DNA from: Nitrospirota bacterium | GTDB lineage: Bacteria > Nitrospirota > Nitrospiria > JACQBZ01 | Assembly (NCBI GenBank): GCA_016201865.1 | Contig: JACQCA010000081.1 | Location: 9,546-73,545, forward strand | DNA: 64,000 nt | Direction: 5' to 3' | In this document: in pieces, positions 13,370 to 63,550 of the stretch | How positions within the stretch are numbered: position 1 is the stretch's first letter | How the letters are laid out: every line of letters starts with the position of its first letter | Notes under the pieces: generated by a model | The model's input: only the letters and a program-made list of their open reading frames with translations | Database searches by the model: none | Told to the model about the DNA's origin: nothing | Translations under genes and position numbers: made by a program

Positions 13370-14124
13370 GCGCCGCGAAGGAATCCGCAAAAATTATTCT
13401 GGACAACCTTCGAGCCTATATCCAGATGTACCGGGAATGGGGATTCGAAGGAGTGTCGGTGAAATGGCCAGTTCAGGACGACGTAGGGGCACGGCGCGCC
13501 GTGCCCCTACCAACAACCGTGCAGCCCACCGTACATTCGAATGCTGACGACCTGACCGCCCTTCGCGATGAGATCGGCGACTGCATGCGATGCAAGCTTT
13601 CTTCCGGTCGGACCCATCTCGTGTTCGGGACGGGCGATTCGGAGGCCGATCTGATGTTCATCGGTGAAGCGCCGGGCGAGGATGAAGACCGTCAGGGAAA
13701 ACCCTTTGTAGGCAAGGCCGGGCAGCTCCTCACCCGCATCATCGAGGCGATGGGACTCAAACGCGAGGAGGTCTATATCGCCAATATCATCAAATGCCGC
13801 CCGCCCGGAAACCGGAATCCGGAGCCGGATGAGATCGCAACCTGTTCCCCTTTCATCCAACGGCAAATCGAGATCCTGCGGCCCAAAGTGATCTGTGCGC
13901 TCGGAACCTTCGCGGCCCAGACCCTTCTGGGCACGGGACAGAAAATCTCCCAGCTCCGCGGACGATTTCATAATCTGCCGATCCTATTCTCCGACGGCTC
14001 ACCGGCCGGGATCAAAGTCATGCCGACCTTCCATCCGGCTTATCTTCTGAGAAACCCGGACGACAAAAAACGGGTCTGGGGCGATATGCAATTGATTATG
14101 CGTGAATTACGGAGTGACCGATGA
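13366..14124 (+). CDS. udg: Uracil-DNA glycosylase, family 4
   Basis: GEAPGEDEDRQGKPFVGKAGQLL and CMRCKL. ATGA overlap with tsaE. The track ORF at 13222 is an in-frame artefactual extension. Confidence 0.85.
   Translation: MSAAKESAKIILDNLRAYIQMYREWGFEGVSVKWPVQDDVGARRAVPLPTTVQPTVHSNADDLTALRDEIGDCMRCKLSSGRTHLVFGTGDSEADLMFIGEAPGEDEDRQGKPFVGKAGQLLTRIIEAMGLKREEVYIANIIKCRPPGNRNPEPDEIATCSPFIQRQIEILRPKVICALGTFAAQTLLGTGQKISQLRGRFHNLPILFSDGSPAGIKVMPTFHPAYLLRNPDDKKRVWGDMQLIMRELRSDR
13483..13508. repeat. Family B palindromic element inserted in-frame in the udg N-terminal region
   Basis: TAGGGGCACGGCGCGCCGTGCCCCTA. It is translated as DVGARRAVPLP and is a near-copy of the intergenic element at 23563. 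Confidence 0.6.
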
Positions 14125-14660
14125 AACAACTGTGGGCACCCTGGCGTATGCCCTATCTGAAGAACGATCAACCGAAGGGCTGCATCTTCTGCACAAAGAC
14201 CCGCCAGAACCATGACCGGTCCAACCTGATCCTGTACCGCGGTCGGCGGACTTTTGTGATGATGAATCTCTACCCCTACAGTAACGGGCATCTCCTCGTC
14301 TCGCCGTACCGCCACGTCGGTTCCATCGAGGAGCTCGACCCGACGACGCTCACCGACCTGATGCGGACCGCGCAACGGGCGCTCCGGGCGGTCCGGCTCG
14401 TCTTCAAGCCGGACGCCTTCAACCTCGGCATCAATCAGGGCCGCCAGGCCGGCGCCGGCATCGAGTCGCACGTCCATCTCCATATCGTTCCCCGCTGGAA
14501 CGGCGACACCAACTTCATGCCGGTCCTGACCGATACGCGCGTCATCCCGGAACATCTCGAATCCAGTTACGACAAACTACTCCCACTGTTTCAGGGCGCC
14601 CGACGAAAGACCAAGGCCCGCGGCCGGGCAAAAGCCGCAAAGAACAAGGTGAAAAGATGA
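14121..14660 (+). CDS. HIT-family nucleotide hydrolase/transferase
   Basis: Histidine triad HVHLHIVPR. ATGA overlap with udg. Confidence 0.85.
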   Translation: MKQLWAPWRMPYLKNDQPKGCIFCTKTRQNHDRSNLILYRGRRTFVMMNLYPYSNGHLLVSPYRHVGSIEELDPTTLTDLMRTAQRALRAVRLVFKPDAFNLGINQGRQAGAGIESHVHLHIVPRWNGDTNFMPVLTDTRVIPEHLESSYDKLLPLFQGARRKTKARGRAKAAKNKVKR

Positions 14661-14986
14661 TTCGTGTTCTGATTTTCACACTGATCCTGCTTCTGGGTTT
14701 TACCGTTGTCGTCAGGAACACCGAGCAGACGGTGGTGCTCCAGTATTTCTTCGGCCTGGCCACCCCGCCGCTTCCGGTCTACCAACTCGTCTCCGGCGCA
14801 TTCATCGCCGGGATGCTCCTGGCCGGTCTGCTCATTTTCCCGGAATGGATCCGGATGCGGCTGGAAATCCGGCGCCAGCGGAAGTCCCTGCAGCGCATCG
14901 AGGACGAAATGGCCCGCCTGCGTCCCCCGAGCCCCGCGATGAGTTCCAAACACCGAGAGTCCGCGACCGAAGGAGAAGAGTCTTAG
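14657..14986 (+). CDS. lapA: LapA-like (DUF1049) inner-membrane protein
   Basis: Two TM helices and a C-terminal coiled tail RRQRKSLQRIEDEMARL. ATGA overlap with HIT. Confidence 0.7.
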   Translation: MIRVLIFTLILLLGFTVVVRNTEQTVVLQYFFGLATPPLPVYQLVSGAFIAGMLLAGLLIFPEWIRMRLEIRRQRKSLQRIEDEMARLRPPSPAMSSKHRESATEGEES

Positions 14987-15067
14987 CGAGCGAGTTCTAC
15001 AGTCGCACATAAAGCTTGACGGATTCATACCATATAGTAGAAAATCCTGCCAAAGAGAAATGAGCAC

Positions 15068-15412
15068 TTGGGGAAAACCATGCAGGGCAATGATACAGCC
15101 AAAAGTGTCATCAGACGCATCGTTGACCGGATCGGCAAAGAATATCGGCCTGAACGGATTATTCTCTTCGGATCGTATGCATACGGAGAACCCGACCGGG
15201 ACAGCGACATTGATCTATTGATCATCAAGAGCACACCGGACCGGCCGATTGATCGCCGCGTCAAGGTAAGGCAGATTGTGTCGGATCCCCAGCGACTGAT
15301 CCCATTTGAGCCGCTGGTCCTCACGCCGAAAGAATTGAAGCGACGGTTGGATATCGGCGACCAATTCATACAGGAAATTTTGAATAAGGGCGAAGTTCTC
15401 TATGCCGCGTGA
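15068..15412 (+). CDS. Minimal nucleotidyltransferase (MNT-type antitoxin, Pol-beta superfamily)
   Basis: RIILFGSYAYGEPDRDSDIDLLII. Lower GC than the flanks. Confidence 0.85.
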   Translation: MGKTMQGNDTAKSVIRRIVDRIGKEYRPERIILFGSYAYGEPDRDSDIDLLIIKSTPDRPIDRRVKVRQIVSDPQRLIPFEPLVLTPKELKRRLDIGDQFIQEILNKGEVLYAA

Positions 15413-15475
15413 GGAATCCCGTTATCCAGACGATTGGTTCAGGGTTGGCCGGAAAGAACTCAGAGGATAAACAAC

Positions 15476-16915
15476 ATGCAACTTGACCCATTGCCGCTGC
15501 CAGCAGTGCAAGACAGTCCGGCGGCTTCGTCCGCGCTTCGAAAAGTCGACAAGCTGAATCGCGCAGCGGAGCGACGTTGGAAAGACAAGCTGATTATTGA
15601 AACTGCGCTTTCTCGATCGCTGGTGAGTTTCCAAGCCAACAAAGGCAGAGCAGTCTATCGCTGGTTCAAATATAAGGAAGCATTCTCCGCCGAAATGGTG
15701 GAGTATTTCCTGAACCGCTACAAGATTTCTAAAGGTGTCCTGATCGATCCATTCGCCGGAAGCGGCACGGCGCTTTTTGCGGCCGGTGCTTTCGGAATGA
15801 AGGCCGAGGGCATTGAGTTGTTGCCCATCGGGCAGACGGTCATTGCAACCAAGCAGCTTATTGATTGGGAAATTCGGCAGCAAGATGTAGAGCGTGTGGC
15901 TTTGTGGCTACAAGAGCAGCCTTGGAAGAATCATGCCGTTGTGAAACCGATCAACGAACTCCGGATTACTCGCGGCGCATATCCAAAAGAAACGGTTGTG
16001 GCAATGGGCAGATTTCTCGGTGCTTCCGAGCAAGAAAGCCAACATGTCAAGACCGTTCTACTTTTCGCGCTTCTCTGCGTCCTCGAATCCATCAGCTACA
16101 CCAGAAAAGATGGGCAGTACCTCCGTTGGGACTATCGCTCCGGTAGGCGGATAGGAAAGAAAGTTTTCGACAAGGGCGAGATTCTATCGTTCGATAAAGC
16201 CATTACCATGAAATTGCAGGAGATCGTTACTGACCTTCGTTCCGCAGAAATGCCTGAAGACTTGTTTAAACCGCTTCGAGCGCGCACTGAAATTGCCCTG
16301 CATTCAGGTTCATGTCTCAACATTTTGCCGCAACTTGCGGCTGGCACCTACGATTGTCTAATTACTTCACCGCCCTATTGTAATCGCTATGACTACACGC
16401 GGACTTACGCGCTTGAGCTTGCATTGCTCGGAGTAGATGAAGAAGGCCTGCTTAAACTCAGGCAGGAAATGCTCAGTTGCACCGTTGAAAACAGAGCCAA
16501 GGACCTCTTGGCAATGAATCCGAATTGGAAATCTGCGATTGAGTCGGCTGACCGACATAAGCTGCTTCAATCCATTCTTGAATATCTTGAATCAGAGAAG
16601 GAACTCGACCTCTTAAATAACGACGGCATCCCACGAATGGTTCGGGGATACTTCTATGAGATGGCCTGTGTCATTGCTGAGTGTGCTCGCATTTTGAAGC
16701 CTGGAGCCCCGCTTATTATGGTGAATGACAATGTCCGATACCAAGGCGCAAGTGTATCGGTGGACATCATTCTCACAGAGATTGCGGAGCGCCTGGGCTT
16801 TACCGCAGAACAGATTCTCGTCTTGCCGAACGGAAAGGGAAACAGCAGCCAACAAATGGGCGCGCACGGCCGGGAGCCGCTAAGGAAATGTGTCTATGTC
16901 TGGCGGAAGGCCTGA
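15476..16915 (+). CDS. SAM-dependent amino-methyltransferase, probably a DNA N4-cytosine or N6-adenine methyltransferase; paralogue 1
   Basis: Motif I LIDPFAGSGTALFAA sits ~200 aa before motif IV LITSPPYCNRYDYTRTY, which is alpha-class order. RBS GAGGA precedes ATG 15476. ~52% GC. Confidence 0.6.
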   Translation: MQLDPLPLPAVQDSPAASSALRKVDKLNRAAERRWKDKLIIETALSRSLVSFQANKGRAVYRWFKYKEAFSAEMVEYFLNRYKISKGVLIDPFAGSGTALFAAGAFGMKAEGIELLPIGQTVIATKQLIDWEIRQQDVERVALWLQEQPWKNHAVVKPINELRITRGAYPKETVVAMGRFLGASEQESQHVKTVLLFALLCVLESISYTRKDGQYLRWDYRSGRRIGKKVFDKGEILSFDKAITMKLQEIVTDLRSAEMPEDLFKPLRARTEIALHSGSCLNILPQLAAGTYDCLITSPPYCNRYDYTRTYALELALLGVDEEGLLKLRQEMLSCTVENRAKDLLAMNPNWKSAIESADRHKLLQSILEYLESEKELDLLNNDGIPRMVRGYFYEMACVIAECARILKPGAPLIMVNDNVRYQGASVSVDIILTEIAERLGFTAEQILVLPNGKGNSSQQMGAHGREPLRKCVYVWRKA

Positions 16916-17162
16916 GCGAATGGCGAAGCCCTATCGTCAGCATCTGAAGTCCGGCAAGGATTTAGAAACCACCTATGAAGCTATTCGAGCGGGGTTTGTT
17001 ACGGGGTGTATTTTGATTGGGGACCGGATTCGAAAACTTATCACTCGCATGTGGACGTATACTCAATTCCAGATTTGCCAGAGCACATCTAACTCGCGCT
17101 GGAGCGACCGCATTTAGCAGGCGGCTTAGCTTAGCGGTTGGTTCTAATGATGAGAGAATGAA

Positions 17163-18458
17163 ATGAAGACGCAATTAACCTTCTTTAGTGAGGCAGAAGC
17201 TCCCACCGCGAACTTGAAAGCCTCGCGCTCCGGAACCTTCCTCGATAATATGTCTCTCCCCATTCATCGTTGGTTCCGATACTCCGCGGGTTTTTCAGCG
17301 CAATGGGTTGAGCGGGTTCTTGATGATTGGCAAATTGATTCTCGTCACATTGTGCTTGATCCCTTTGCTGGATCGGGCACCGTGTCCGTTGTGTGCGACA
17401 CACGAGGGATAAGAAGCATCGGCATTGAAGCCCATCCTGTTGTTGCCCGGGCATGCAAAGCAAAACTGAGTTGGGCAACCTTAATTGAGCGATTTTCCGC
17501 TTTTGCGGAACAGACCGTTAAGTCGGCTAAGCTCTCCCCGGCGGCTTTGTCACAATACCCCAGCCTGATACAGCGCAGCTTTGATCCGGATTCGCTCGCC
17601 GTCTTGGACTCGCTCAAAACCGCTTGGTTCTCCCTTAATGATGAATCACACGAATCCGAACTCGTCTGGCTCGCAATAACGGCCGTTTTGCGCGCCTGCT
17701 CGAAAGCAGGCACTGCCCAATGGCAATATATTCTGCCTAATAAATCAAAAGCGAACGTCGCTTTCCCCGACATAGCATTTCGCCGGCAGATTGAAATGAT
17801 GAAACTAGATATGCGATGGATGCAGAACCGGGTCAAAGAATCACTTGGAGAAGTGATTTCAACCGATGCAAGGCATTGTTCAGACTCCATCACCCACAAA
17901 GTCGACGCAGTCATCACCTCTCCTCCCTATGCAAACAACTATGATTATGCCGATGCGTTGCGCTTTGAAATGACCTTCTGGGGTGAGGTTAACGGATGGG
18001 GTGATATTCACGACAAAGTAAGGAAGTACCTCATGGTATCGTCATCCCAACATTCATCCCATGACAAGCTTGATGCGGAATCCTTGCTTTCACTGTCTAT
18101 GGTCGAGCCGATTCGGAAGGAACTGACGTCCGTCGTTCATGAGTTGTCGCGCGTCCGAGAAATGCATGGAGGCAAGAAAAATTACCATACGATGGTGGCG
18201 GCATACTGCCGGGATATTTCATTGGTGTTGCATCAACTCCGTCGGGTTTGCAGGAAAGGTGCGAAGATGTGCTGGGTCATTGGTGATTCAGCCCCTTATG
18301 GAGTGTATTGCCCGATTGAAAAATGGATCGGCGAACTCGCCCTTGCCGCCGGCTTTGACAGCTATACTTTCAAGAAGCTCAGAGATAGAAATATCAAATG
18401 GAAAAACAGAAAACATCGAGTTCCACTGAAGGAAGGACTCCTTTGGATTGAGGGTTAA
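17163..18458 (+). CDS. SAM-dependent amino-methyltransferase, paralogue 2
   Basis: VLDPFAGSGTVSVV ... VITSPPYANNYDYADA. It shares the N-terminal box HRWFRYSAGFS with paralogue 1 (YRWFKYKEAFS). Confidence 0.6.
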   Translation: MKTQLTFFSEAEAPTANLKASRSGTFLDNMSLPIHRWFRYSAGFSAQWVERVLDDWQIDSRHIVLDPFAGSGTVSVVCDTRGIRSIGIEAHPVVARACKAKLSWATLIERFSAFAEQTVKSAKLSPAALSQYPSLIQRSFDPDSLAVLDSLKTAWFSLNDESHESELVWLAITAVLRACSKAGTAQWQYILPNKSKANVAFPDIAFRRQIEMMKLDMRWMQNRVKESLGEVISTDARHCSDSITHKVDAVITSPPYANNYDYADALRFEMTFWGEVNGWGDIHDKVRKYLMVSSSQHSSHDKLDAESLLSLSMVEPIRKELTSVVHELSRVREMHGGKKNYHTMVAAYCRDISLVLHQLRRVCRKGAKMCWVIGDSAPYGVYCPIEKWIGELALAAGFDSYTFKKLRDRNIKWKNRKHRVPLKEGLLWIEG

Positions 18459-18460
18459 TC

Positions 18461-19321
18461 ATGGCGGAATCACTGGCGCATACGTTTGGGCAGATTATCG
18501 GCAACGTTCTTGAAGAGGCTGTCGAACCGGCACTCAGGAAGTTCGCCGGTGATCACGGCTTACTCTTGGACAAAAAGGGACACAGGAATGCGCGAAAAGG
18601 AAAGAAAGTCACATGGACAGACATCTATGGTAATTCTCACGACTTGGATTTCGTCCTTGAGCGTGGCGGCACGGAAAAGACCATCGGGACACCTGTTGCG
18701 TTTATTGAAACAGCATGGAGAAGATACACGAAGCACTCCCGAAACAAAGCACAGGAGATACAGGGCGCAATTCAAGCGCTGGCGCTTACGCACAAATACA
18801 GTCATCCGTTTATAGGCACCATTTTGGCCGGGGTCTTCACTGATGGCGCATTGACGCAGTTGAAGTCCTTGGGATTCCACGTTTTGTACTTTCCTTACAA
18901 ATCCATCCTCACGGCTTTCAAATCGGTGGGCGTTGATGCAGACTTCAACGAGAACACACCGGAAAAAGAGTTCCGCCGCAAACTCAGACAATGGAAATCA
19001 ATAAGCAAGAAAATAAAACGTAGTATTGCGAAATGCCTCATTGATTTGCACAAGGCCGACATTCAAGCCTTTTTTGACGCACTCGAAAAGAGCATCGCAC
19101 GGAAGATAGCCAAGATCACCATCATTCCATTGCATGGCCGGGAATCTGAACACCGGACGGTTGAAACAGCCATTGAATTCCTGACATCATATAAAGCAAC
19201 CAATATGGAAGCAGGCGTTTATAAGTTCGAGATTTACATCCGCTACTCAAATGGTGATCGAATTACCGCTGAGTTCACTGATAAAAACGCCGCTGTGGAG
19301 TTCCTGAACAAATACATGTGA
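18461..19321 (+). CDS. Hypothetical protein, candidate PD-(D/E)xK restriction endonuclease
   Basis: Its ATG lies 2 nt after the methyltransferase-2 stop. Length 286 aa. Possible nuclease core HDLDFVLE...AFIETAW. AT-rich codon usage. Confidence 0.35.
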   Translation: MAESLAHTFGQIIGNVLEEAVEPALRKFAGDHGLLLDKKGHRNARKGKKVTWTDIYGNSHDLDFVLERGGTEKTIGTPVAFIETAWRRYTKHSRNKAQEIQGAIQALALTHKYSHPFIGTILAGVFTDGALTQLKSLGFHVLYFPYKSILTAFKSVGVDADFNENTPEKEFRRKLRQWKSISKKIKRSIAKCLIDLHKADIQAFFDALEKSIARKIAKITIIPLHGRESEHRTVETAIEFLTSYKATNMEAGVYKFEIYIRYSNGDRITAEFTDKNAAVEFLNKYM

Positions 19322-19399
19322 GCTAACGATAGAATCGGCGGACGGAGAACCCGCTACGAGGCTTTGCCGCCATTCATTTTAAGGAAACCGCAAGATAGA

Positions 19400-22156
19400 A
19401 TGTCCGATCTCACCCCCCTCATGAAACAGTATACGGAGATCAAACAGCGTCATAAGGACGCGATTCTGTTTTTCCGCGTGGGCGATTTCTATGAGATGTT
19501 CTTCGAGGACGCCGTGATCGCCTCGAAGATTCTCGAGATCGCGCTGACCTCGCGCGACAAATCGAAGGAAGACGCGGTGCCGCTCTGCGGCATCCCCTAT
19601 CACGCCGCCTCGACCTACATCGCCAAACTGATTCGGGCCGGGAAGAGCGTCGCGATCTGCGATCAGGTCGAGGATCCCGCCTTGGCCAAGGGTCTTGTCC
19701 GCCGCGAAGTCGTCCGGGTCATCACGCCGGGCACGCTGATCGAACCGGAGCTTCTTTCCGCCGACCAAAACAACTACCTTGCCTCGGTGGCCCTCTCCAA
19801 GGCAGGCTGCGGGCTGGCGTTTGTTGATCTGTCGACGGGAGAGTTCAACCTGACCCAGTTCGACGGCGCCGCGGCCCAAGAAGAACTTCTATCCGAACTG
19901 TCCCGATTGGATCCCAAAGAGATCCTTCTGGCCGAATCTGAGCTGGCGCGCTTTGAGACTTCGCTGAACGATCAGACAACCGCGCAGATATCTTCAATGC
20001 GACTCTGCCGGTTTACGGACACCGCCTTTGATCCCGGATTGGCTCGTCAAGCGCTGCTGGATCATTTTCAACTTCAGTCCCTGGCCGGTTTCGGTTGCGA
20101 AGAGATCCCGATGGCCGTCGCGGCCGCCGGCGCATTGTTGCGCTATCTCCAAGAGACCCAGCTCACGGCCCTGGGACATTTAAACCGAATCAAACCATAC
20201 CGGCGCGCGGACCATCTCATACTGGATTCGATCACGCAACGGAATCTGGAGTTGACCCGGCGTCTGATGGACGGCCGTCCGGAAGGCTCGTTGCTCTGGA
20301 CGCTGGACCGGACCCTCACGCCGATGGGCGCGCGGCTCCTCCGGAACTGGCTGCTTCAGCCGCTGCTGGACATCCCGGCCATTCGGGCGCGGCAGTCCGC
20401 GATCGAAGCCTTCTGGGTCGAGACGATGCATCGGACGCGTCTTCGTTCAATCTTCAAGGGCATCGCAGACCTGGAACGGCTCATCGGACGGATCTCGCTC
20501 GGCACGGCCAACGCCCGCGACCTCATTCAACTCAAAAATTCGATCGCGCAGCTTCCGTCCGTCTACAAATGTCTGGCGGAACAGCCGGACAGAATTTACA
20601 TCGGGGGGGGACAGATTTCAAATCTGTCCCCAGCCACTCCCCAGCCAGTACTGGAATCCATCCGCGCCGGATGGGACGATCTCACCGATATCCAGTCCCG
20701 AATCCAACAGACTCTGGTGGACGATCCGCCGCCGGGGCTGCGCGACGGCGGACTGATCCGGGACGGTATTGACCCGACGCTGGACGAGCTGAAAGACATC
20801 GCCCGCGATGGAAAACGCTGGCTCTCAGCCCTGGAAGCGAAAGAGCGGGAACGGACCGGGATCGAATCGCTCAAGGTGCGTTACAACCAGGTGTTTGGAT
20901 ACTACATCGAGGTGACGAAGACCCATCTCTCGCGCGTGCCGACGGATTACCACCGCAAACAGACGCTTGTGAATGCCGAGCGGTTCATCACGCCCGAGTT
21001 AAAAGAACTGGAAACCAAGGTGCTCGGCGCGGAAGAACACCGCCGGGGGCTTGAGTACGAAATCTTCGAACGGCTTCGTAAGGAGGTCGCGGATTCCACT
21101 CCCCGGGTTCAGGCGATGGCGCGGTCGGTCGCTCTCTTAGATGTCTTATCCACGCTGGCCGAGGTTGCGGCGACGGAGCATTATGTCAGGCCCGAGGTCC
21201 ATGACGGCGATGAGATCCGGATCGTCGACGGCCGCCATCCGATGTTGGAGCGAATGCTGCCGAGAGGGGCCCGGTTCATCCCGAACGATGCCATCATAGA
21301 TCGGCAAGACAACCGATTGCTGATCATCACCGGACCCAACATGGCCGGCAAGTCCACCTATATGCGACAGGTCGCGTTGATCGTGATTCTGGCCCAGATC
21401 GGCGGCTTCGTGCCGGCCGCCGAAGCCCGAATCGGGATGGTGGACCGGATCTTCACGCGGATCGGGGCCTCGGATGATCTGATGGGCGGGCAGAGCACCT
21501 TCATGGTCGAGATGACCGAAACGGCCGCCCTCCTTCATCAGGCCACCGGCCGGAGTCTGATCCTGTTGGACGAGATCGGACGCGGGACGAGCACCTTCGA
21601 CGGCGTCAGCATCGCCTGGGCCGTGGCCGAATACCTTCACGACACGACCCGATCCGGCGCGCGGACGCTCTTCGCCACCCATTATCATCAGCTCACCGAA
21701 TTGGCTTTGACTTTTCCCGGAATAAAGAATTACAATATCGCCGTTCGCGAATGGAACGACGAGATCATCTTTCTTCGGAAGATCGTGGCGGGCGGGACCG
21801 ATCGGAGTTACGGCATCCAGGTGGCCCGACTGGCCGGTCTGCCTCATGAGGTCATCGGCCGAGCGAAGGAAATCTTGGCCAACCTGGAAAGCGGAGAACT
21901 CAACGAGTTCGGCCAACCCCGGTTGGCTTCGAGTCCCGATTCACCGTCGGCCGCTACGGATGCCGCGCAGCTCGATCTCTTAACCGGGAGGGGACCGATT
22001 TCCAATCCGTCCCCGGCCGACAGGCATCCCGTCATCAAAGAAATTTTGCAGGAACTCCGGGAAATGGATCTTGACCGTCTCACGCCGCTGGAGGCGATCA
22101 ACCGCCTCCATGAACTGAGGAAGAAGGCCGAGGGGGCGTCCGAAGGGGCCTCCTAA
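19400..22156 (+). CDS. mutS: DNA mismatch repair protein MutS
   Basis: MSDLTPLMKQYTEIKQRH, the Walker A motif GPNMAGKSTYMRQ and DEIGRGTSTFDG. The start was set at MSDL (RBS AAGGAA). Confidence 0.95.
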   Translation: MSDLTPLMKQYTEIKQRHKDAILFFRVGDFYEMFFEDAVIASKILEIALTSRDKSKEDAVPLCGIPYHAASTYIAKLIRAGKSVAICDQVEDPALAKGLVRREVVRVITPGTLIEPELLSADQNNYLASVALSKAGCGLAFVDLSTGEFNLTQFDGAAAQEELLSELSRLDPKEILLAESELARFETSLNDQTTAQISSMRLCRFTDTAFDPGLARQALLDHFQLQSLAGFGCEEIPMAVAAAGALLRYLQETQLTALGHLNRIKPYRRADHLILDSITQRNLELTRRLMDGRPEGSLLWTLDRTLTPMGARLLRNWLLQPLLDIPAIRARQSAIEAFWVETMHRTRLRSIFKGIADLERLIGRISLGTANARDLIQLKNSIAQLPSVYKCLAEQPDRIYIGGGQISNLSPATPQPVLESIRAGWDDLTDIQSRIQQTLVDDPPPGLRDGGLIRDGIDPTLDELKDIARDGKRWLSALEAKERERTGIESLKVRYNQVFGYYIEVTKTHLSRVPTDYHRKQTLVNAERFITPELKELETKVLGAEEHRRGLEYEIFERLRKEVADSTPRVQAMARSVALLDVLSTLAEVAATEHYVRPEVHDGDEIRIVDGRHPMLERMLPRGARFIPNDAIIDRQDNRLLIITGPNMAGKSTYMRQVALIVILAQIGGFVPAAEARIGMVDRIFTRIGASDDLMGGQSTFMVEMTETAALLHQATGRSLILLDEIGRGTSTFDGVSIAWAVAEYLHDTTRSGARTLFATHYHQLTELALTFPGIKNYNIAVREWNDEIIFLRKIVAGGTDRSYGIQVARLAGLPHEVIGRAKEILANLESGELNEFGQPRLASSPDSPSAATDAAQLDLLTGRGPISNPSPADRHPVIKEILQELREMDLDRLTPLEAINRLHELRKKAEGASEGAS
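20603..20631. repeat. Family A palindromic element, a perfect copy inserted in-frame in mutS
   Basis: GGGGGGGGACAGATTTCAAATCTGTCCCC. A 12-bp stem with a 1-nt loop. It is translated as GGGQISNLSP. Confidence 0.75.
21990..22014. repeat. Family A palindromic element, a diverged copy in-frame in the mutS C-terminal linker
   Basis: GGGGACCGATTTCCAATCCGTCCCC. Three substitutions relative to the perfect copy. It is translated as RGPISNPSP. Confidence 0.65.
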
Positions 22157-51153: not shown

Positions 51154-52421
51154 TCCCGCTTTGCTAAATATCCCGTAAAGGTCTTATCCGAAAGATTTTT
51201 ACCCAACAACTGAACCTGGACGGTCCGGCCTTTCTCGATTTCACCGGATTCCGACGGAAAAATCAGGAGGCCGTTGGCCTTGACCATGGACGTCAAAACG
51301 CCGGAGCTCTGGCTCCCTGTCGTCCAGACCTCGTATCGGTCTGCCGTCTTTTTCACCACCGCTCTCAGGAAATGCGTTTTCCCTGTTTTTTTGGTGATCC
51401 GCTCCATCAAAACCGCCTCGATCACCGGACGGAAGAGCAGGGCATGGCCTTGCATCTTTCGCAACGCGGGTCGAACGAACTGTTCAAAGGTGACCATCGT
51501 CGAAACCGGATTCCCCGGAAGTCCGAAAGCGGGTTTCGTTTTCAACATTCCGAAGGCCAACGGCTCGCCCGGTTTCATCGCGACCTTCCAGAAGGCCATG
51601 GTCGCGCCCAGTTCGTCAAGCACATCCTTCACAAAATCATATTCCCCCACCGAAACGCCGCCGGAGATGAGAATCAGGTCGGCCGACAATCCCTGGGCCA
51701 GACGATCCGAAAGCTCCTCCCGCGTATCCTTCGCAACACCCAGGAGCACCGGAACGCCCCCGGCTTCGATCACCTGAGCCGCGACCGCATAGCCGTTGCT
51801 GTTCATAATCTTGTTCGGGCCCAACGCTTCACCCAGGTCGGCCAGTTCATTGCCCGTGGCCAGAATCGCGACACGGGGCCGCTGGTAGACAAGAACATGC
51901 GATCGCCCCACCGAGGCCAGCAGGCCCACCTCCGCCGGACCGATCACGCTGTTTTGTTCCAGAACGACATTCCCAGATTGGATATCCTCACCGCGAAGAC
52001 GGACGTTTTCACCCGCCTCGACCGGTTGGATGACACGGACGCGGTTTCCCTCGGTCCGTGTATCCTCGACACGGATCACCGCATCCGCGCCTTCCGGCAC
52101 GGGCGCCCCCGTCATGATTCGGCTGGCTTGGCCCGGTTGAATCGCCTTTTGGGGAAGAACACCCGCCGCAATCTCTTCAATCACCTCCAGAAGGACGGAG
52201 CGTTGCTCCGATGCCTGAGAAAGCTCGCCATGACAAACGGCATATCCATCCATCGCGGAACTATTCCAGGGCGGATGATCGCGCACGGATGCCACCGGCT
52301 CGGCCAGCACGCGTCCCAATGAATGAAGGAGATCCATCTTTTCCGTCCCCATCCGCTGAACCTGATCAAGAATCGCTTCCAGTGCCTTTTTGACCGGAAT
52401 CATTCCCATTTTCAAACCCAT
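51138..52421 (-). CDS. moeA: Molybdopterin molybdotransferase MoeA
   Basis: Length 427 aa with the MoeA domain order; GNELADLGE and PGNPVS. Confidence 0.85.
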
Positions 52422-52561
52422 TAGAGCGGTTTATTATAACGCAAGGTTTTCTATCTGTAAAGGCAGGAAACCTTCTCTACAAATCATGGTGACAGTCGCC
52501 TAAATACAAAAGGGGGTGACGTCTGTCACCCCCTTTGCTGTTGAAGATTGGACGGTGTTGC

Positions 52562-54280
52562 TTACTTACGCTGTTGCTTGGCCGCATTCGCCTTGCGAAT
52601 AATCCAGCCCTCAAGCCCAAAGGCCAAGATCAGGGCCACGAAGGGATAGACATAGGCTTTTGTCGGAATCGGCGGCTCCAGGATCGTATAGTACCAGGTT
52701 GAAATGGATGATTTCAAACCATGGTCGCCGTTGTTGCCGTCCCATGCGAAGAAAACGGTCGGGATGTATTTGCCCATCTCAAACTGGACGTCGTTTTCTT
52801 TGTCGTTGGTGGTCATGGCCCTTGTCAGGATGACGCGCCACCGGCCGTCTTTATACTCGGAAAAAACGGCTTTTACGTCTTGATTTTGATGGGCCTCCAG
52901 TTTCAGATCACCCCCCATGGCACCATGACCGGTATATGCCTTAACCGTCCCGTCCGACTCCCACTTCCAAAGGTCAATGGCGCGTTTGGCATCGCCGAAG
53001 ACGAATCGCGGTTTTTCTGGCGGCGTTAACTCTTGCCACTTGGCCGGGAACTGAACACCGACGGCATCATTGAACATCGGATATTCCCTCGAAGCAATCG
53101 GCTTTCCGGCCGGCGGAGTTTCCTCAAAACTGGCCGCCTGCGCTAACGCTTCTGGAGAGGACGCACTCTTTATCCGATCGTCCCATTCAAAGGACCAGGC
53201 GATTTCTTTGCCGTTGAAAATGGATTTCACCCAAACCTCATCCACGAGACGGACAAAGTTCCTCGGTTTGTGAATGATCTGTCCGGCCAGCCCGATATAT
53301 TGAGAATCAATCTTCTGCCAAACCGCGTCATCAGGGTTGTTGGGAATATTCCCTTCAACGAAGTGTGCCTTCACCACGAACTGCAGAGCCGGATGAGCCG
53401 TCAGAGGATCGATCTTCCGCTTGGGACAAAGCGAGATCACAAAGTTGGCCACGTCCCAACGCTGTTCGGGCGTCAGCACATCGGCAAATGACGGCATCGG
53501 TGTGCCGTTCAGTCCCGTGGAAACCTCGCGAAAAACATTTTTGGGGTTGTAAGGATCTTCGCGGTTGCCGCGGAAGTTCCAGCATTTATGCAAGTCGGCC
53601 GGAAAGATCGGGAAACCCCATTCGTCTTTCTGTGTTTTGTTTCCATCCCCTCGTCCTTCATTGCCGTGGCATTCGACGCATTTCCCTTTATTCATAAAAA
53701 CTTCTTTTCCTCGTTTAATGCTTTCTTCAGAGGAAGCGACTTGTTTCCCGAAATCAATGACATGGAATTCTTCATTTTCCATGTCTTGGAAATTCCGCTC
53801 TTTTACAAGATTGGTCATGACAAACGAGACCACTTGGTGCCGTTGCTGATCGTTCAGAACTCCGTCCCAAGGCGGCATCGCAGATCCCGGCAAACCATGC
53901 GTCACCGTCAAAAAGAGATCGTTCTCCGTCGGAAGCTCTCCGCTGCCGGTGTGACGAATCTTGAATGTCCCCTGGTTAAAATTCCTGGGGCGAGGCCAGA
54001 GGCGATCCGCACCCGGGCCGTCTCCTGCACCTTCGGGGCCGTGACACCAAACGCATTTCTTAAAGTAAATCTGCTTTCCGGCATCGATGTCGGCGGGGGA
54101 AGGCTTTGCGGGCCGGCCGGCCGATGCAGCTGCAGCCGGCTTTTCCTCTTTCTTCGTTTCGGCCATGGTCAAGACCACAGTCCCGGTTGCAATGAATGCA
54201 AACGTGACGACACCCGTCATAACCGCTCTCGTCTTGCTAAAGCCTGATAAAAGCTTGTTCATCGCTTGCGCCCCTTTCAC
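52562..54280 (-). CDS. Membrane-anchored di-haem cytochrome c with a ~270-aa C-terminal domain and a C-terminal TM helix
   Basis: N-terminal TM, two CxxCH motifs (CVWCHG, CVECHG) and a C-terminal TM. Confidence 0.7.
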   Translation of the reverse strand: MKGAQAMNKLLSGFSKTRAVMTGVVTFAFIATGTVVLTMAETKKEEKPAAAASAGRPAKPSPADIDAGKQIYFKKCVWCHGPEGAGDGPGADRLWPRPRNFNQGTFKIRHTGSGELPTENDLFLTVTHGLPGSAMPPWDGVLNDQQRHQVVSFVMTNLVKERNFQDMENEEFHVIDFGKQVASSEESIKRGKEVFMNKGKCVECHGNEGRGDGNKTQKDEWGFPIFPADLHKCWNFRGNREDPYNPKNVFREVSTGLNGTPMPSFADVLTPEQRWDVANFVISLCPKRKIDPLTAHPALQFVVKAHFVEGNIPNNPDDAVWQKIDSQYIGLAGQIIHKPRNFVRLVDEVWVKSIFNGKEIAWSFEWDDRIKSASSPEALAQAASFEETPPAGKPIASREYPMFNDAVGVQFPAKWQELTPPEKPRFVFGDAKRAIDLWKWESDGTVKAYTGHGAMGGDLKLEAHQNQDVKAVFSEYKDGRWRVILTRAMTTNDKENDVQFEMGKYIPTVFFAWDGNNGDHGLKSSISTWYYTILEPPIPTKAYVYPFVALILAFGLEGWIIRKANAAKQQRK

Positions 54281-54292
54281 GTAAACGGATGA

Positions 54293-55207
54293 TTAATCCC
54301 ATGTCCTCGGGAAGAATTCGGTATGCCAGTATTCAAACATATTAACTTTCCAGATTTCGTCCGTGGTCAGATGCTCTTCCCACGGCGGCATCGCGGACGC
54401 CCATGGAAAACCTTCCCGTGGAAGCCCCGGCCCCCCCTTTGCAATTCTCCAGAAAACGAATGTCTCCTGGAGCTGGGCAATGGTTCCCGGATCGGAGAAG
54501 TTGGCCGGAATCGGGTTGAAGGCGAATGCAAACATACCGCGGCCGTTCAGGTTGTCGCCGTGGCAGAAGTGACAGTTCTGGAAGAAAATGGAACCGCCCT
54601 CCTTCACATACAGAAGGTACCCCTTCGCATCCGGCGCAAAGGGATTCTGCTTAAAATATTTATCCTCTTTGCCCACCGGCAGGTATTCACCCTTGTCGTC
54701 CACACGATAAGGGTTTCGAGCGGTCTGCAATGTAAAGTTCTGACCCCGCACCGTGGTGGATGCCGGCGGCGCCGGATGAACCGTCCTTAACTCGATCGGC
54801 TCGTCAAACTTGGGGACATTAAAATCATACGTCCCGTACCCAATTAGCAACGGGAGAACCACGAAGGAAACGCTCCGGACGCTTTTATAGACAGGGGTGA
54901 CGGCCATGACGGTATTTAGAATCGGCCGCTTAAATTCGGACCATCCCTTCTCCGTCGAAGAAATAAACAGGAAGATCACCAAGGTGACCAGTCCCATGTA
55001 GGTGTAGAGAAGCGCGGAGGGGATCGGCGGAGTCAGCACATACTTGAAGATCGACCAAGCTCCCAGCCAGATCAGGAGGGCCTGAGGAAAGGCAGGAATC
55101 CGCTTTCCTATTTTCTGTAAAACATAGTTGATGCCGATGTAAATAAACGTCGCGATCGTCAGGATAAGCAACAGTTCAATTGGCTTATAACCTTCAATCC
55201 ACATCAT
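54293..55207 (-). CDS. Polytopic membrane protein with a C-terminal mono-haem cytochrome c domain
   Basis: Four predicted TM helices, then CHFCHG. Confidence 0.7.
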   Translation of the reverse strand: MMWIEGYKPIELLLILTIATFIYIGINYVLQKIGKRIPAFPQALLIWLGAWSIFKYVLTPPIPSALLYTYMGLVTLVIFLFISSTEKGWSEFKRPILNTVMAVTPVYKSVRSVSFVVLPLLIGYGTYDFNVPKFDEPIELRTVHPAPPASTTVRGQNFTLQTARNPYRVDDKGEYLPVGKEDKYFKQNPFAPDAKGYLLYVKEGGSIFFQNCHFCHGDNLNGRGMFAFAFNPIPANFSDPGTIAQLQETFVFWRIAKGGPGLPREGFPWASAMPPWEEHLTTDEIWKVNMFEYWHTEFFPRTWD

Positions 55208-55281
55208 TCACCTCCAGAATAATCGAGATATTGAATCTCCGGTGATATTCCTTTAACTGATGGAACTTTCTTCAGCCAGGC

Positions 55282-56499
55282 TTACGGAGCCGAAACCGCC
55301 TTGGCAGCCCCGCCGCAAACCGTGGCAAAGTTCTCTTGAGGCGGGCCAGGCAGGTTGTCTTTCTTCGCCGTATCACAATTCTGCTGAAGCAGATAGTCGG
55401 CTATCTTCTCCAAACCTCCATAGGTAAACTTCGTGGCAAAATCCTGGATCATCGGAGAAATTAGAGGATTCGACTTCTGCGCGAATTGATGCACAATAAA
55501 CGCATTGGGATCCACGATGGATTCCATAACGTATTCTTTGGGTGTCTTGGCATGGGCCTTCCCGGCCTTCACACGCGCCTGATATTCCGCAGAAGCAATG
55601 CGCCTTGGAGCATTATAGCCCTCGATGAGCATTGGACCGATCGCGCCGAATTTTGCTAAGGCAATCCCTGGAATCTGATGGCATGCAAAGCAACCCATCT
55701 TTGCGACAATCTGATCCGGAGTGTCGGAGGCCAAGACGATCGGAGGACCGGGAGGAGCGGCGGCTTGAGTGCCAGGTACGGCGGCCTTTGGACGATCCGC
55801 TTCAGGAATAAACTTCTCATAGGCCGCACGGATCTCTTTTGGAGAAGGCGGCGTCTCCCCTTCCCGATACCACAGCCAAGTATCCACGGCAATCAGTTCT
55901 TCGATGCTTAAAGCAATCGGGGGTTTGTGAATGACCGGCATCGGGCTATCACGATCATTGGTCCCCTTAGTACCGAATCCTTCCACCACAAAACAGGCAG
56001 GACAAGCATGGGATTCGGCGATATATTCCTCAGCCGTCGTCGCACGACCGCTTCCCTTAAAAGATTCGGTCGAAACAAAATCCGCTTTGATATACTTGGG
56101 GTCTTTAATTCGCTCTGCCGCCCTTTTGCCAAGCCCAATCAGGTTCGGAGCGCGATCTCCGATATCACCTTTCTTGAAGGTATGGCAAAGAGGGCATTGA
56201 CCTTTTCCGATTCCGCGTTCCGCGAATCCACCGACCTTTCCGAAGATGATGGTTTCGCCCATCTCGGACAATTTATCTGTTGGCATCGTATCGATTGCAC
56301 CGATATCCATCTTGATAACAGGCGGCACTTCACCCCGGGTCTGAGGCAGCCAGTTTGAGTAACTGGCAAATATCCCGGTCATGACCATGTAGAAGCCGAT
56401 GGCCGTCAGGAGCCCTCGGACTCTGGGGAGATTGTACCCCAAGATGAAAAGCGCAATTGCAGAGAACAGAATGGTGACGGCTAAATACCCTTGAGTCAC
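55282..56499 (-). CDS. Membrane-anchored di-haem cytochrome c
   Basis: CPLCH and CFACH motifs. N-terminal TM pair. Confidence 0.7.
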   Translation of the reverse strand: MTQGYLAVTILFSAIALFILGYNLPRVRGLLTAIGFYMVMTGIFASYSNWLPQTRGEVPPVIKMDIGAIDTMPTDKLSEMGETIIFGKVGGFAERGIGKGQCPLCHTFKKGDIGDRAPNLIGLGKRAAERIKDPKYIKADFVSTESFKGSGRATTAEEYIAESHACPACFVVEGFGTKGTNDRDSPMPVIHKPPIALSIEELIAVDTWLWYREGETPPSPKEIRAAYEKFIPEADRPKAAVPGTQAAAPPGPPIVLASDTPDQIVAKMGCFACHQIPGIALAKFGAIGPMLIEGYNAPRRIASAEYQARVKAGKAHAKTPKEYVMESIVDPNAFIVHQFAQKSNPLISPMIQDFATKFTYGGLEKIADYLLQQNCDTAKKDNLPGPPQENFATVCGGAAKAVSAP

Positions 56500-56573
56500 G
56501 TTAGATCTCCTGTGGGCAAGATTTGGGGGCCGGGTTTAAAACCGGCCCCCAGGATTTGTAATGAGGTTGGCGA

Positions 56574-58496: not shown

Positions 58497-58599
58497 GGCT
58501 TATCTCCCTATATTTTTAAAAAATTAAAAAACTTTACCCCGGCCACCTCTTTTAGAATCAAACCTAACAGCCCTGGCCCTATTAAAAGTGCCAGTATTA

Positions 58600-58650
58600 T
58601 CGAGTCCTATGTAGCACCATAGGATGCCTTTGTCAAGCAAAAAATAAAAA
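58600..58650 (-). promoter_or_regulatory. Sigma70-like promoter (copy 1) for the bd-like oxidase gene
   Basis: Minus strand reads ATTTTTTGCTTGACAAA (-35 TTGACA), a 17-nt spacer containing the inverted repeat CCTATGgtgctaCATAGG, then TACATA. Confidence 0.45.
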
Positions 58651-58667
58651 CCGCGCTTCACAAACCT

Positions 58668-58783
58668 TAATGAAACAGGAAAAAGTAATCAAGCCCCTGT
58701 ATTTTCATAAACAACCAATCCATAGTTTGAAAATAAAACACCCAAACCACGAGCATCACCACAAAAGCAATCACCGTTTTCAT
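58668..58783 (-). CDS. 38-aa single-TM peptide
   Basis: MKTVIAFVVMLVVWVFYFQTMDWLFMKIQGLDYFFLFH. SD AAGGTGG lies 6 nt upstream. Found manually; it is below the ORF-track size cutoff. Confidence 0.4.
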
Positions 58784-58856
58784 GACCCCCACCTTTCCCA
58801 ATGAGTGGCATGGACGCTTACCATTTCACCCGGTCGATGATAACCCGGTTTATCGA

Positions 58857-58955
58857 TCAGTGATAAAGCGCCCCGAACCAATAGAAGAACCAGATCGAAA
58901 CGACGCAGACGATGACATACAAAATCGGACCGACATTCTGACGGATTTTATCCAT
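58857..58955 (-). CDS. 32-aa single-TM peptide
   Basis: MDKIRQNVGPILYVIVCVVSIWFFYWFGALYH. A perfect SD AAGGAG lies 8 nt upstream, behind a strong promoter. Confidence 0.45.
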   Translation of the reverse strand: MDKIRQNVGPILYVIVCVVSIWFFYWFGALYH

Positions 58956-58984
58956 TGCCCTCTCCTTGTAACAGCCCCCGCCCA

Positions 58985-59035
58985 ACAAGTGGTGTGATTT
59001 TAGTGAATCAGAAAAAATTTGTCAAGCAAAAAATC
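58985..59035 (-). promoter_or_regulatory. Sigma70 promoter (copy 2), TTGACA-N17-TAAAAT
   Basis: Contains the same 17-mer ATTTTTTGCTTGACAAA as copy 1, then the -10 box TAAAAT. It drives the 32-aa peptide gene. Confidence 0.55.
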
Positions 59036-59100
59036 CGGGTTCCGATTCAACGGAATTTAAGCGCTGGATTCCCCTATTTTTACCCATTTTTCTATCGCCG

Positions 59101-63386: not shown

Positions 63387-63464
63387 TGGTGTCCCCAAGG
63401 GGATTCGAACCCCTGTTACCGCCGTGAAAGGGCGATGTCCTAGGCCGGGCTAGACGATGGGGAC
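63387..63464 (-). tRNA. tRNA-Glu (UUC)
   Basis: Anticodon arm CGCCCUUUCACGGCG matches E. coli tRNA-Glu. T-arm GGGGUUCGAAUCCCC. Ends in CCA. Confidence 0.85.
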
Positions 63465-63474
63465 GCAAAATAAA

Positions 63475-63550
63475 TGGTGAGCCGCCCGGGATTCGAACCC
63501 GGGACACCCGCCTTAAAAGGGCGGTGCTCTACCAGCTGAGCTAGCGGCTC
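63475..63550 (-). tRNA. tRNA-Lys (UUU)
   Basis: GAGCCGCUAGCUCAGCUGGUAGAGC...CCGCC-CUUUUAA-GGCGG...GGUUCGAAUCC...CCA. Confidence 0.85.

Follow-up and report, generated by a model that had tools for sequence, protein, structure and literature searches.

Described relatives of the locus

The closest described relatives of the genes studied here belong to two Type IIP restriction-modification families and to the MNT-HEPN (MntA/HepT-like) pairs. The plasmid pAMI7 of Paracoccus aminophilus encodes a Type II module "with NcoI specificity", directed at the palindrome CCATGG (PMC3925955), and NcoI itself has been assigned to the PD-(D/E)XK nucleases, with a non-canonical, "migrated" motif III (PMC3045609). 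The BsoBI/AvaI enzymes recognise CYCGRG, and a structure is available for the family (1dc1). We compared these systems with a locus in a 64-kb stretch of a metagenome-assembled genome (MAG) of Nitrospirota, hereafter the window. An earlier note on this DNA had described a low-GC segment beside mutS with an orphan MNT-type nucleotidyltransferase, two paralogous methyltransferases (MTase-1 and MTase-2) and a putative nuclease of 286 aa (R2), and had taken it for a possible uncharacterised restriction-modification module. Our main reading, to which we give a probability of about 0.85, is that the segment combines, between lapA and mutS, three modules of horizontal origin in a mosaic: an intact NcoI/PamI-family pair and, next to it, what remains of a BsoBI/AvaI-type system and of an MNT-HEPN pair. 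All features lie on the + strand.

A horizontally acquired islet between lapA and mutS

The ORF coordinates and a GC scan confirmed the four ORFs and the low-GC segment. The islet (15048-19378) has a GC content of 49.8%, the lowest among all 4.3-kb segments of the window (mean 57.0%, sd 2.8%). The low value given before (50-52%) thus stands, whereas the direct flanks, at 59-61%, are slightly poorer in GC than the 62% that had been claimed. The profile of GC and codon usage that had been recommended shows both GC and GC3 depressed in the islet, with GC3 values of 0.53-0.60 in its genes against 0.68-0.79 in the neighbouring ones. Identity to relatives is 86-92% in DNA and 91% in protein within the islet, versus 64-74% and 52-67% in the flanks. 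Since the islet is more conserved than its flanks and both GC and GC3 are lowered, we conclude that it was acquired horizontally, as had been suspected.

The insertion site lies between two host genes, a lapA-domain gene on the left (14657..14986; Pfam LapA_dom, E 3e-12) and mutS on the right (19400..22156), which adjoin each other directly in two more distant loci, L097 and L105. The syntenic locus L088, whose MutS is 67% identical to that of the window, has the order LapA, MNT, HEPN, MTase-1, R.BsoBI-like, DndB-like, a 114-aa gene and MutS, and shows the site with its modules undamaged. Between the window and this relative, the DNA is 89-92% identical in the islet and 64-74% in the flanks. 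The order in L089 is LapA, MTase-1, R.BsoBI-like and a SIR2-like gene. At the left border of the islet (15038..15047), the high-identity homology to L088 begins at 15038 and the homology to the flank of L089 stops at 15047. This border carries the motif TAGAAAATCC, which resembles TAGAATGTCC at the right border. The pattern TAGAAWRTCC occurs at just two places in the window, both of them borders, a count that is biased by the post hoc definition of the pattern.

Could the composite arrangement be a mis-assembly that joined different genomes? The sequence is part of a MAG, and both homology and GC change abruptly where one module gives way to the next. However, the interval 16820-19492, junctions included, is reproduced at 100% identity in the independent Logan assembly L090; the three contigs L090-L092, each from a sequencing run of its own, are identical and span both the junction between the endonuclease stub and MTase-2 and that between R2 and mutS. 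The left part of the islet shares its gene order with L088 and L089. An assembly artefact is therefore extremely unlikely, and we treat the mosaic as a real arrangement in what follows.

An MNT gene with the remnant of its HEPN partner

The first module consists of an orphan, antitoxin-like MNT-type nucleotidyltransferase of 110 aa (15080..15412, from the ATG supported by homology; a longer ORF starts at 15068). The protein matches Pfam NTP_transf_2 (1e-10) and Polbeta (4e-9), scores below the cut-off of NCBIfam MntA, unlike described MNT-HEPN pairs, and has from residue 31 the motif GS-x10-DxD (GSYAYGEPDRDSDID), in agreement with the pattern G[SG]-x(9-13)-DxD of minimal nucleotidyltransferases. 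It is 90.9% identical to the MNT protein of L088, whose gene overlaps that of an intact HEPN partner of 131 aa (Pfam HEPN, PF05168, 3e-22; this partner matches PF05168, not HepT-like as in the described pairs). No intact HEPN toxin gene was found overlapping or following the MNT gene in the window, where only a 5' stub of 20 codons is left (15402..15461). Its product, MPREESRYPDDWFRVGRKEL, equals residues 1-20 of the HEPN protein of L088 (20/20), and the window has no counterpart of positions 5438-5985 of L088 (548 bp). The breakpoint lies at 15460/15461. The MNT gene is thus indeed an orphan, as had been noted, and is what a deletion of its HEPN partner left behind.

An orphaned methyltransferase of the BsoBI/AvaI type

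MTase-1 (15473..16915; 480 aa from the ATG) matches the PADLOC model MTase_II PDLC03224 with an E-value of 8.6e-159. Its relatives are found directly upstream of BsoBI-family endonucleases: an intact PF09194 (Endonuc-BsobI) gene lies immediately 3' of MTase-1 homologues in seven independent contexts (L083, L085, L086, L088, L089, L176 and L178), and the family profile of these linked endonucleases matches BsoBI (PDB 1dc1) with an E-value of 1.5e-126. The protein is 91% identical to those of L088 and L089 and departs from its family at only 2 of the 211 columns with at least 97% conservation. In the window, unlike in the known systems, the methyltransferase stands alone, and the endonuclease gene is down to a 5' stub of 28 codons (16920..17003) that encodes the BsoBI-family N-terminus MAKPYRQHLKSGKDLETTYEAIRAGFV; its ORF continues without homology to 17117. 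Searches by tblastn with three BsoBI-like endonucleases matched this stub with their residues 1-28 (70-75% identity, E 3e-9 to 1e-8) and gave no match beyond these residues in the 64-kb window. The DNA homology to L088 and L089 stops at 16999, with the breakpoint at 16999/17000. Hence, MTase-1 is an intact but orphaned methyltransferase of a BsoBI/AvaI-type system, and with 28 codons left of its endonuclease gene, this system no longer restricts here.

The description of the two methyltransferases given earlier was accurate. They belong to one permuted family (23% identity, E 1e-19) and share the N-terminal box RWF[KR]Y..[AG]FS, at residue 63 of MTase-1 and residue 36 of MTase-2. The motif DPFAGSGT precedes SPPY by 207 aa in MTase-1 (residues 92 and 299) and by 187 aa in MTase-2 (residues 66 and 253), where about 190 aa had been stated for both. 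The permuted order is borne out by the Pfam N6_N4_Mtase profile, of which only the C-terminal part matches the N-terminus of each protein. Both proteins are DNA amino-methyltransferases rather than RNA methyltransferases. An SPPY motif IV favours N4-cytosine (m4C), with m6A also possible, and the product of MTase-1 is accordingly probably m4C.

A predicted NcoI/PamI-family restriction-modification pair

The third module comprises MTase-2 (17163..18458; 431 aa; PADLOC MTase_II PDLC03306, full length, E 2.6e-118) and R2 (18461..19321; 286 aa), which starts 2 nt past the stop codon of MTase-2, as had been reported. It is preceded by a leader (17004..17162), somewhere within which the left border of the cassette lies. 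This leader resembles neither the BsoBI-type cassette nor any of the loci fetched for comparison, and it gave no hit in a scan for consensus promoters. A 3' tail of 57 nt (19322..19378) marks the right border: 86% DNA identity to L175, which has an unrelated context, runs to 19378 and then ends.

The idea that R2 has a PD-(D/E)XK core is supported by PADLOC and by structure comparisons. R2 matches the REase_II models PDLC03525 (E 7e-70, positions 1-285 of 288) and PDLC03541 (E 1e-29), as does R.PamI of pAMI7, which corresponds to PDLC03541 (734 bits). In BLASTP, R2 and R.PamI, a characterised isoschizomer of NcoI, are 30% identical (E 5e-32) over residues 4-265, i.e. 92% of the length, and share the catalytic block GN..D.DFVLE + GTPVAF[IM]E..WRR..[KR]HS..KA. 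The segments HDLDFVLE and FIETAW, singled out in the earlier note, lie within the most conserved block of the R2 family, where none of 57 sequences departs from D61, D63, E67, E83 or W86. The AF2 model of R2 (pLDDT 88.5) retrieves PD-(D/E)XK nucleases in Foldseek, including 1y88 (E 1e-4) and BsoBI 1dc1 (probability 0.94). There is no solved structure for any member of the R2/PamI family. The acidic residues D61/D63 and E83 are present, with no lysine at the canonical motif-III position, and the E83-T-A arrangement of R2 would fit the non-canonical motif III of NcoI (PMC3045609). On homology and modelling, R2 is thus a predicted restriction endonuclease whose core is PD-(D/E)XK-like, and its full-length homology to the characterised R.PamI places it in the NcoI/PamI family. 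The earlier view that the proteins match no familiar family does not hold: each of the three has a full-length match to a REBASE-derived PADLOC model.

The earlier note had also read MTase-1, MTase-2 and R2 as a single Type IIS system with an asymmetric site, in which each methyltransferase protects one strand. The three genes are indeed adjacent, co-oriented and within one low-GC block, and the two methyltransferases are paralogous. Yet among 80 genome loci with an R2 homologue, each one with upstream sequence has one MTase-2-type gene immediately upstream, and an MTase-1-type gene is absent from all of them (0/80) to a distance of about 6 kb. In other loci the cognate nuclease of MTase-1 belongs to the BsoBI family, and a 28-codon remnant of such a gene stands between the two methyltransferases. 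R.PamI, the characterised relative, recognises a palindrome. The comparative context therefore largely refutes the Type IIS layout, which we regard as very improbable.

We propose instead that MTase-2 and R2 form a complete, self-contained two-gene Type IIP cassette, the sole predicted working restriction system in the islet; Erwinia plasmids that are small and mobilizable carry pairs of this type too. The target of methylation by MTase-2 would be a short palindrome, on N4-cytosine if SPPY is a guide, and R2 would cleave the same palindrome when unmethylated. The order of the genes, methyltransferase then nuclease with a 2-nt spacer, fits an expression in which the methylase comes first. PamI has the same tightly coupled order, but its methyltransferase is a C5-cytosine enzyme, in contrast to the permuted SPPY amino-methyltransferase of the window. 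On homology to R.PamI, CCATGG is our best guess for the site; the identity between R2 and R.PamI is low enough for a different specificity.

This pair might also be an inactive relic, or R2 might have a role other than restriction, so that the islet would hold just solitary methyltransferases, which are common. CCATGG shows no clear avoidance in the window (22 observed vs 27.5 expected, a ratio of 0.80); the ratio is 0.69 in carriers vs 0.83 in controls, with rank 20 of 64. NCBI labels R2 homologues in public MAGs "DNA methylase" or hypothetical protein. Against this, a recent acquisition would explain the missing avoidance, and Pfam/NCBIfam searches give no domain to back the "DNA methylase" label. 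R2 is full length and equals the family consensus at all 85 columns with at least 97% conservation, in a family with strong conservation, whose members always occur together with their methyltransferase. A relic is thus quite improbable, and we retain a working NcoI/PamI-family pair as the preferred interpretation. The label matters for automated counts of defence systems, as the R2 family is widespread (more than 4,000 relatives) and is covered by neither a Pfam nor an NCBIfam model.

Turnover of defence genes at the lapA-mutS site

Both restriction-modification families are already catalogued, and the islet is made of ordinary Type II families. What it offers, modest in weight, is an example of the turnover of defence islets caught in the act. 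The MTase-2/R2 module sits where the relative carries the body of the BsoBI-type endonuclease and the downstream cargo, and we infer the order of the events that led to this arrangement. MTase-1 and the MNT protein are the surviving protective partners of two addiction-type modules whose toxic partners are gone. Comparison with an intact relative fixes the two breakpoints to the nucleotide, and each time the toxic gene was lost and the protective gene kept, as in other orphan methyltransferases and defence-island hotspots. The locus thus illustrates cleanly how a methyltransferase becomes solitary and an antitoxin an orphan.

As in defence-island hotspots, the cargo of the site varies (MNT-HEPN, BsoBI-type restriction-modification, DndB-like, SIR2-like and NcoI-family restriction-modification). 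Unlike in such hotspots, the relatives that share the site are deeply diverged, as their MutS proteins show, rather than strains of one species, and neither a recombinase nor long repeats are present at the lapA-mutS site. The BsoBI-type cassette, which extends exactly from the ribosome-binding site to the stop codon of the nuclease, occurs at this same site in three genomes, 86-92% identical between flanks of 64-74% identity, and the borders share a short TAGRRAATCC-like motif. Both observations count in favour of a more speculative idea, which we consider unlikely: the junction may serve specifically for exchange, with deeply diverged Nitrospirota swapping promoter-less, sharp-ended defence cassettes there through a mechanism that leaves neither a recombinase gene nor long repeats. 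A separate and likewise unlikely possibility is that the R2 family has a recognition sequence different from CCATGG. That near-identical cassettes recur at one site in diverged genomes gives a modest hint as to the way in which restriction-modification cassettes move.

Two minor observations concern the flanks. A consensus scan revealed a promoter-like site, TTGACG-18-GAAAAT (15016..15045), in the host flank just 5' of the islet. It is kept in the flank of L089 and could drive the cassettes, on the weak evidence of a type of site that is no commoner than in shuffled sequence. On the other side, the start codon of mutS is the ATG at 19400, not the TTG at 19364, as the homology to the mutS of L088 begins at 19400.

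A low-GC island between lapA and mutS

The segment between lapA and mutS (15048-19378) has a GC content of 49.8%, which is the minimum among all 4.3-kb windows in the 64 kb (mean 57.0%, sd 2.8%). GC3 is 0.53-0.60 in its genes versus 0.68-0.79 in the neighbouring housekeeping genes. The ORF listing gives four genes in the island, all on the forward strand: an MNT-type nucleotidyltransferase (15412 end, start at 15068 or 15080), a 480-aa methyltransferase (MTase-1, 15473-16915), a 431-aa methyltransferase (MTase-2, 17163-18458), and a 286-aa protein (R2, 18461-19321) whose start lies 2 nt past the MTase-2 stop. The low-GC segment with this gene content, which the earlier note had described beside mutS, is thus confirmed. 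The MNT is a minimal nucleotidyltransferase of the standard kind. The mutS gene follows R2 on the same strand; its longest ORF begins at a TTG (19364), but as homology to relatives starts only at ATG 19400 (MSDLTPLMKQY), translation probably begins there.

Two other features of the window can be mentioned. A second lower-GC stretch (52000-60000, 0.49-0.53) has no defence genes; its products belong to respiration and redox metabolism (cytochrome c, an EB_dh-like haem protein, a cytochrome bd-like oxidase subunit, and an FGE-sulfatase). The UDG and LapA genes have a HIT-family gene between them (14121-14660); it is missing from that place in L088, a syntenic relative, probably present there in the related locus L089, and found directly 5' of MutS in several distant relatives.

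Two methyltransferases from two different systems

Both methyltransferases carry DPFAGSGT before SPPY, with gaps of 207 aa (MTase-1) and 187 aa (MTase-2), and they share the box RWF[KR]Y..[AG]FS. Only the C-terminal part of the Pfam profile N6_N4_Mtase aligns, to the N-terminus of each protein, showing that the motifs come in a permuted order compared with that usual for the family. With 23% identity (E 1e-19), the two are remote paralogues. The permuted order, the shared N-terminal box, and the paralogy proposed from the sequence therefore all hold. The SPPY motif, together with established knowledge of such motifs, suggests that the modification is N4-cytosine. We found nothing reliable in the literature on the methylation type or sequence of M.NcoI, and one review table is internally inconsistent.

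The combination of these proteins had also been taken to match no familiar family. This is not the case, since all three match PADLOC models end to end: MTase-1 matches MTase_II PDLC03224 (E 8.6e-159), MTase-2 matches MTase_II PDLC03306 (E 2.6e-118), and R2 matches REase_II PDLC03525 (E 7e-70, residues 1-285 against positions 1-287 of 288). The PADLOC restriction-modification (RM) models are derived from REBASE; the main text of the PADLOC papers gives no account of how they were seeded. Both RM modules belong to families already present in REBASE-derived libraries.

The layout of two methyltransferases and one nuclease had been read as a Type IIS or asymmetric-site system, which predicts that the three genes are conserved together. 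We collected 80 genome loci with an R2 homologue (from Planctomycetota, Bacteroidota, Chloroflexota, Acidobacteriota, Cyanobacteriota, archaea, and others) and assigned their ORFs to types by comparison with the proteins of the window. A single MTase-2-type gene was immediately 5' of the nuclease in every locus with upstream sequence, and none of the 80 had an MTase-1-type gene within about 6 kb of the R2 homologue. The same MTase-2/R2 pair occurs on small mobilizable plasmids of Erwinia aphidicola. MTase-1, which has about 8,000 homologues, has another partner: in seven independent contexts (L083, L085, L086, L088, L089, L176, and L178) its homologue is directly followed by a gene of 317-328 aa with the Pfam domain Endonuc-BsobI. 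The alignment of five of these endonucleases matches the sequence of the BsoBI crystal structure (1dc1) over its full length (E 1.5e-126). The three genes are thus not co-conserved, the trio was rejected, and we conclude that MTase-2 is the cognate methyltransferase of R2.

A few related loci have unusual arrangements. In Okeania sp. KiyG1 (L076, 4681-6885) the MTase-2-type and R2-type genes form one ORF of 735 aa, because a frameshift at the C-terminus of the methyltransferase lets it run on into the nuclease; either a natural fusion or an error in sequencing may lie behind this. At about 1,000 aa, the MTase-2-type ORF of a Pirellulales MAG (L042, 2986-5994) is some two times longer than normal, pointing to a fusion at the N-terminus or an overlooked stop codon. 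On the mobilizable 5.9-kb Erwinia aphidicola plasmid p3_N2_6 (L094), the full-length MTase-2-type gene is preceded by a 158-aa partial copy of its N-terminal part (1093-1569), and related plasmids of its strain have 2-4 copies of the nuclease match. In a Desulfovibrionales MAG (L001, 2684-3317) the MTase-2/R2 cassette is directly followed by an MNT and HepT-like pair and then by a ParE toxin gene, making it another RM cassette adjoining toxin-antitoxin modules.

R2 is a nuclease of the NcoI/PamI family

R2 has 4,419 detectable relatives, including an identical protein from a Nitrospirota MAG, and no match in Pfam or NCBIfam; a family with more than 4,000 relatives therefore lacks a model in both. 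Some of its members (among P0001, P0042, P0080, P0081, P0102, P0103, and P0106) are named "DNA methylase" by NCBI and others "hypothetical"; the former label is probably a propagated mis-annotation. The prototype behind PDLC03525 may be NcoI, judging by its length. The second PADLOC match of R2 is PDLC03541 (E 1e-29).

A tblastn search of plasmids matched pAMI7 of Paracoccus aminophilus JCM 7686, in a 308-aa ORF directly 3' of a C5-cytosine methyltransferase. This ORF scores 734 bits against PDLC03541 over positions 1-308 of 308, so the model is R.PamI itself, the nuclease of a module described as having NcoI specificity (PMC3925955). R.PamI also matches PDLC03525 (E 4e-25) and is 30% identical to R2 (E 5e-32), sharing its most conserved block. 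The partners differ, a C5-cytosine methyltransferase for R.PamI and the SPPY-motif MTase-2 for R2.

In an alignment of 57 sequences of the R2 family, D61, D63, E67, E83, W86, R87, R88, H92, S93, N95, and K96 are invariant. The AlphaFold model (pLDDT 88.5, pTM 0.84) places DLDFVLE and AFIETAWRR on what would be adjacent strands, followed by a predicted helix with K91 and K96. Searches of PDB sequences with R2 alone and with the family profile gave no real match. The best PDB matches by Foldseek are PD-(D/E)XK nucleases, with low TM scores of about 0.28: AF1548 (1y88, E 1e-4), BsoBI (1dc1, probability 0.94), the small subunit of R.BspD6I, NotI, and the nuclease domains of Can2/Cdn1. Profile-profile comparison gives no relationship between the R2 and BsoBI families (probability 0.3), although Foldseek ranks BsoBI second. 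The Foldseek matches support a PD-(D/E)xK-like core, as suggested for the 286-aa protein. The fold of NcoI was unknown in 2008 (PMC2441816); its assignment to PD-(D/E)XK with a non-canonical, "migrated" motif III (PMC3045609) would agree with the lysine-free E83-T-A of R2. We conclude that R2 is a Type IIP endonuclease of the NcoI/PamI family. By analogy with a relative of 30% identity, the target of MTase-2/R2 would be CCATGG. The observation in the earlier note is thus confirmed and its interpretation is supported in part: the low-GC island and the motifs stand and the nuclease core is supported, the three-gene asymmetric system and the unfamiliar family are not.

Two decayed modules that kept their protective genes

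A tblastn search of the whole window with BsoBI-like endonucleases matched only their residues 1-28, at 16920-17003 (MAKPYRQHLKSGKDLETTYEAIRAGFV), with 70-75% identity (E 3e-9 to 1e-8), and there was no further match anywhere in the 64 kb. Given the BsoBI-family partner elsewhere and this 28-codon stub, MTase-1 belongs to a BsoBI/AvaI-type system whose endonuclease gene was reduced to a stub. Unlike in such a system, the nuclease is truncated, and we rejected the pair as functional. MTase-1 itself looks intact from its sequence: among 119 homologues, it deviates at 2 of the 211 columns with at least 97% conservation, and both changes are conservative.

The other decayed module is that of the MNT. 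The window lacks 548 bp that in L088 carry the body of the gene for HEPN, the toxin partner of the MNT. The remnant has 20 codons (15402-15461), with 20/20 residues identical to L088. Both modules have lost their toxic gene, that of the HEPN toxin in one and of the BsoBI-type endonuclease in the other, and retain the protective one (MNT, MTase-1). What is noteworthy is this architecture, with an intact cassette where the nuclease body of another system would be and a toxin-less antitoxin adjoining.

History and borders of the island

L088 is a 17-kb contig with undamaged modules and the backbone order of the window (PdxJ, AcpS, YjeF, TsaE, UDG, LapA). LapA is followed there by MNT, HEPN, MTase-1, an intact BsoBI-like nuclease, a DndB-like gene, a 114-aa gene, and MutS. 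L089 has LapA, MTase-1, an intact BsoBI-like nuclease, and a SIR2-like gene. By blastn, the window is 92% identical to L088 at 15038-15460 (5015-5437 in L088), and its positions 15461-16999 are 88.6% identical to L088 (5986-7524) and 86.4% to L089 (719-2256). The housekeeping flanks have only 64-74% identity to these relatives. Between these genomes, MNT and MTase-1 proteins are 91% identical, versus 67% for MutS, 60% for YjeF, 54% for TsaE, and 52% for LapA. What L088 and L089 have in common is exactly the MTase-1-plus-nuclease unit, which begins at its ribosome-binding site, ends with the stop codon of the nuclease gene, and is 83.8% identical between them.

The empty site is represented by two distant relatives, L097 and L105, where LapA directly adjoins MutS. 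A metagenome scan anchored on MutS found only distant relatives (44-53% identity) and no further variants of the island; L107 and L171 carry metabolic genes as inserts. The lapA-mutS site carries different defence cargo in relatives, and the cargo beside the BsoBI-type cassette varies: the DndB-like gene and 114-aa ORF in L088 (8452-9941), the SIR2-like protein in L089 (3223-4317), and a GmrSD-type (Type IV) nuclease in L176 (9458-10969).

From about 17001 onward, the window has no homology to L088 or L089. In L175, a nuclease 85% identical to R2 lies in an unrelated context, with a KTSC-like ORF and an AAA ATPase downstream. DNA identity with L175 is 86% through the R2 stop and ends at 19378, 57 nt past that stop and 21 nt before the mutS ATG, which sets the right border of the second cassette. 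The left border lies somewhere within 17001-17162. The second cassette (MTase-2 and R2) is a separate mobile unit. A chimeric assembly is argued against by three Logan contigs from separate sequencing runs that are identical to the window, the longest of which (L090) spans 16820-19492.

No flanking direct or inverted repeats, tRNA genes, or Rfam elements were found at the borders, nor does the island contain a recombinase, a tRNA gene, or any long repeat. In the whole window, the tRNA and Rfam matches are limited to tRNA-Glu(TTC) and tRNA-Lys(TTT), which are far away (63387-63550, reverse strand). A 10-nt motif, TAGAAWRTCC, occurs in the 64 kb only at the two island borders, as TAGAAAATCC (15038-15047) and TAGAATGTCC (19396-19405), which are identical at 8/10 positions; the pattern was defined after seeing both. 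The left-border motif is TAGAGAATCC in L088 and TAGGGAATCC in L089. A target duplication, a crossover core, or chance might account for the motif, which we regard only as a lead.

Avoidance of recognition sites

The window shows no avoidance of CCATGG (22 sites observed, 27.5 expected). We compared the 80 carrier loci, with RM genes masked, to 80 control loci. The observed/expected ratio is 0.69 in carriers versus 0.83 in controls (log2 -0.27, bootstrap 95% interval -0.54 to -0.03), a weakly stronger depletion that ranks 20 of 64 palindromes, and site-free loci are in weak excess among carriers (z 2.0). A recent acquisition of the island, in line with its GC contrast, would explain the missing CCATGG signal. 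The most depleted 6-bp palindromes of the window with a meaningful expectation are CAGCTG (3 observed, 10.7 expected) and CTCGAG (9 observed, 25 expected, z -4.3), and both are depleted in carrier and control loci alike. CTCGAG is among the sequences covered by CYCGRG, the BsoBI/AvaI site.
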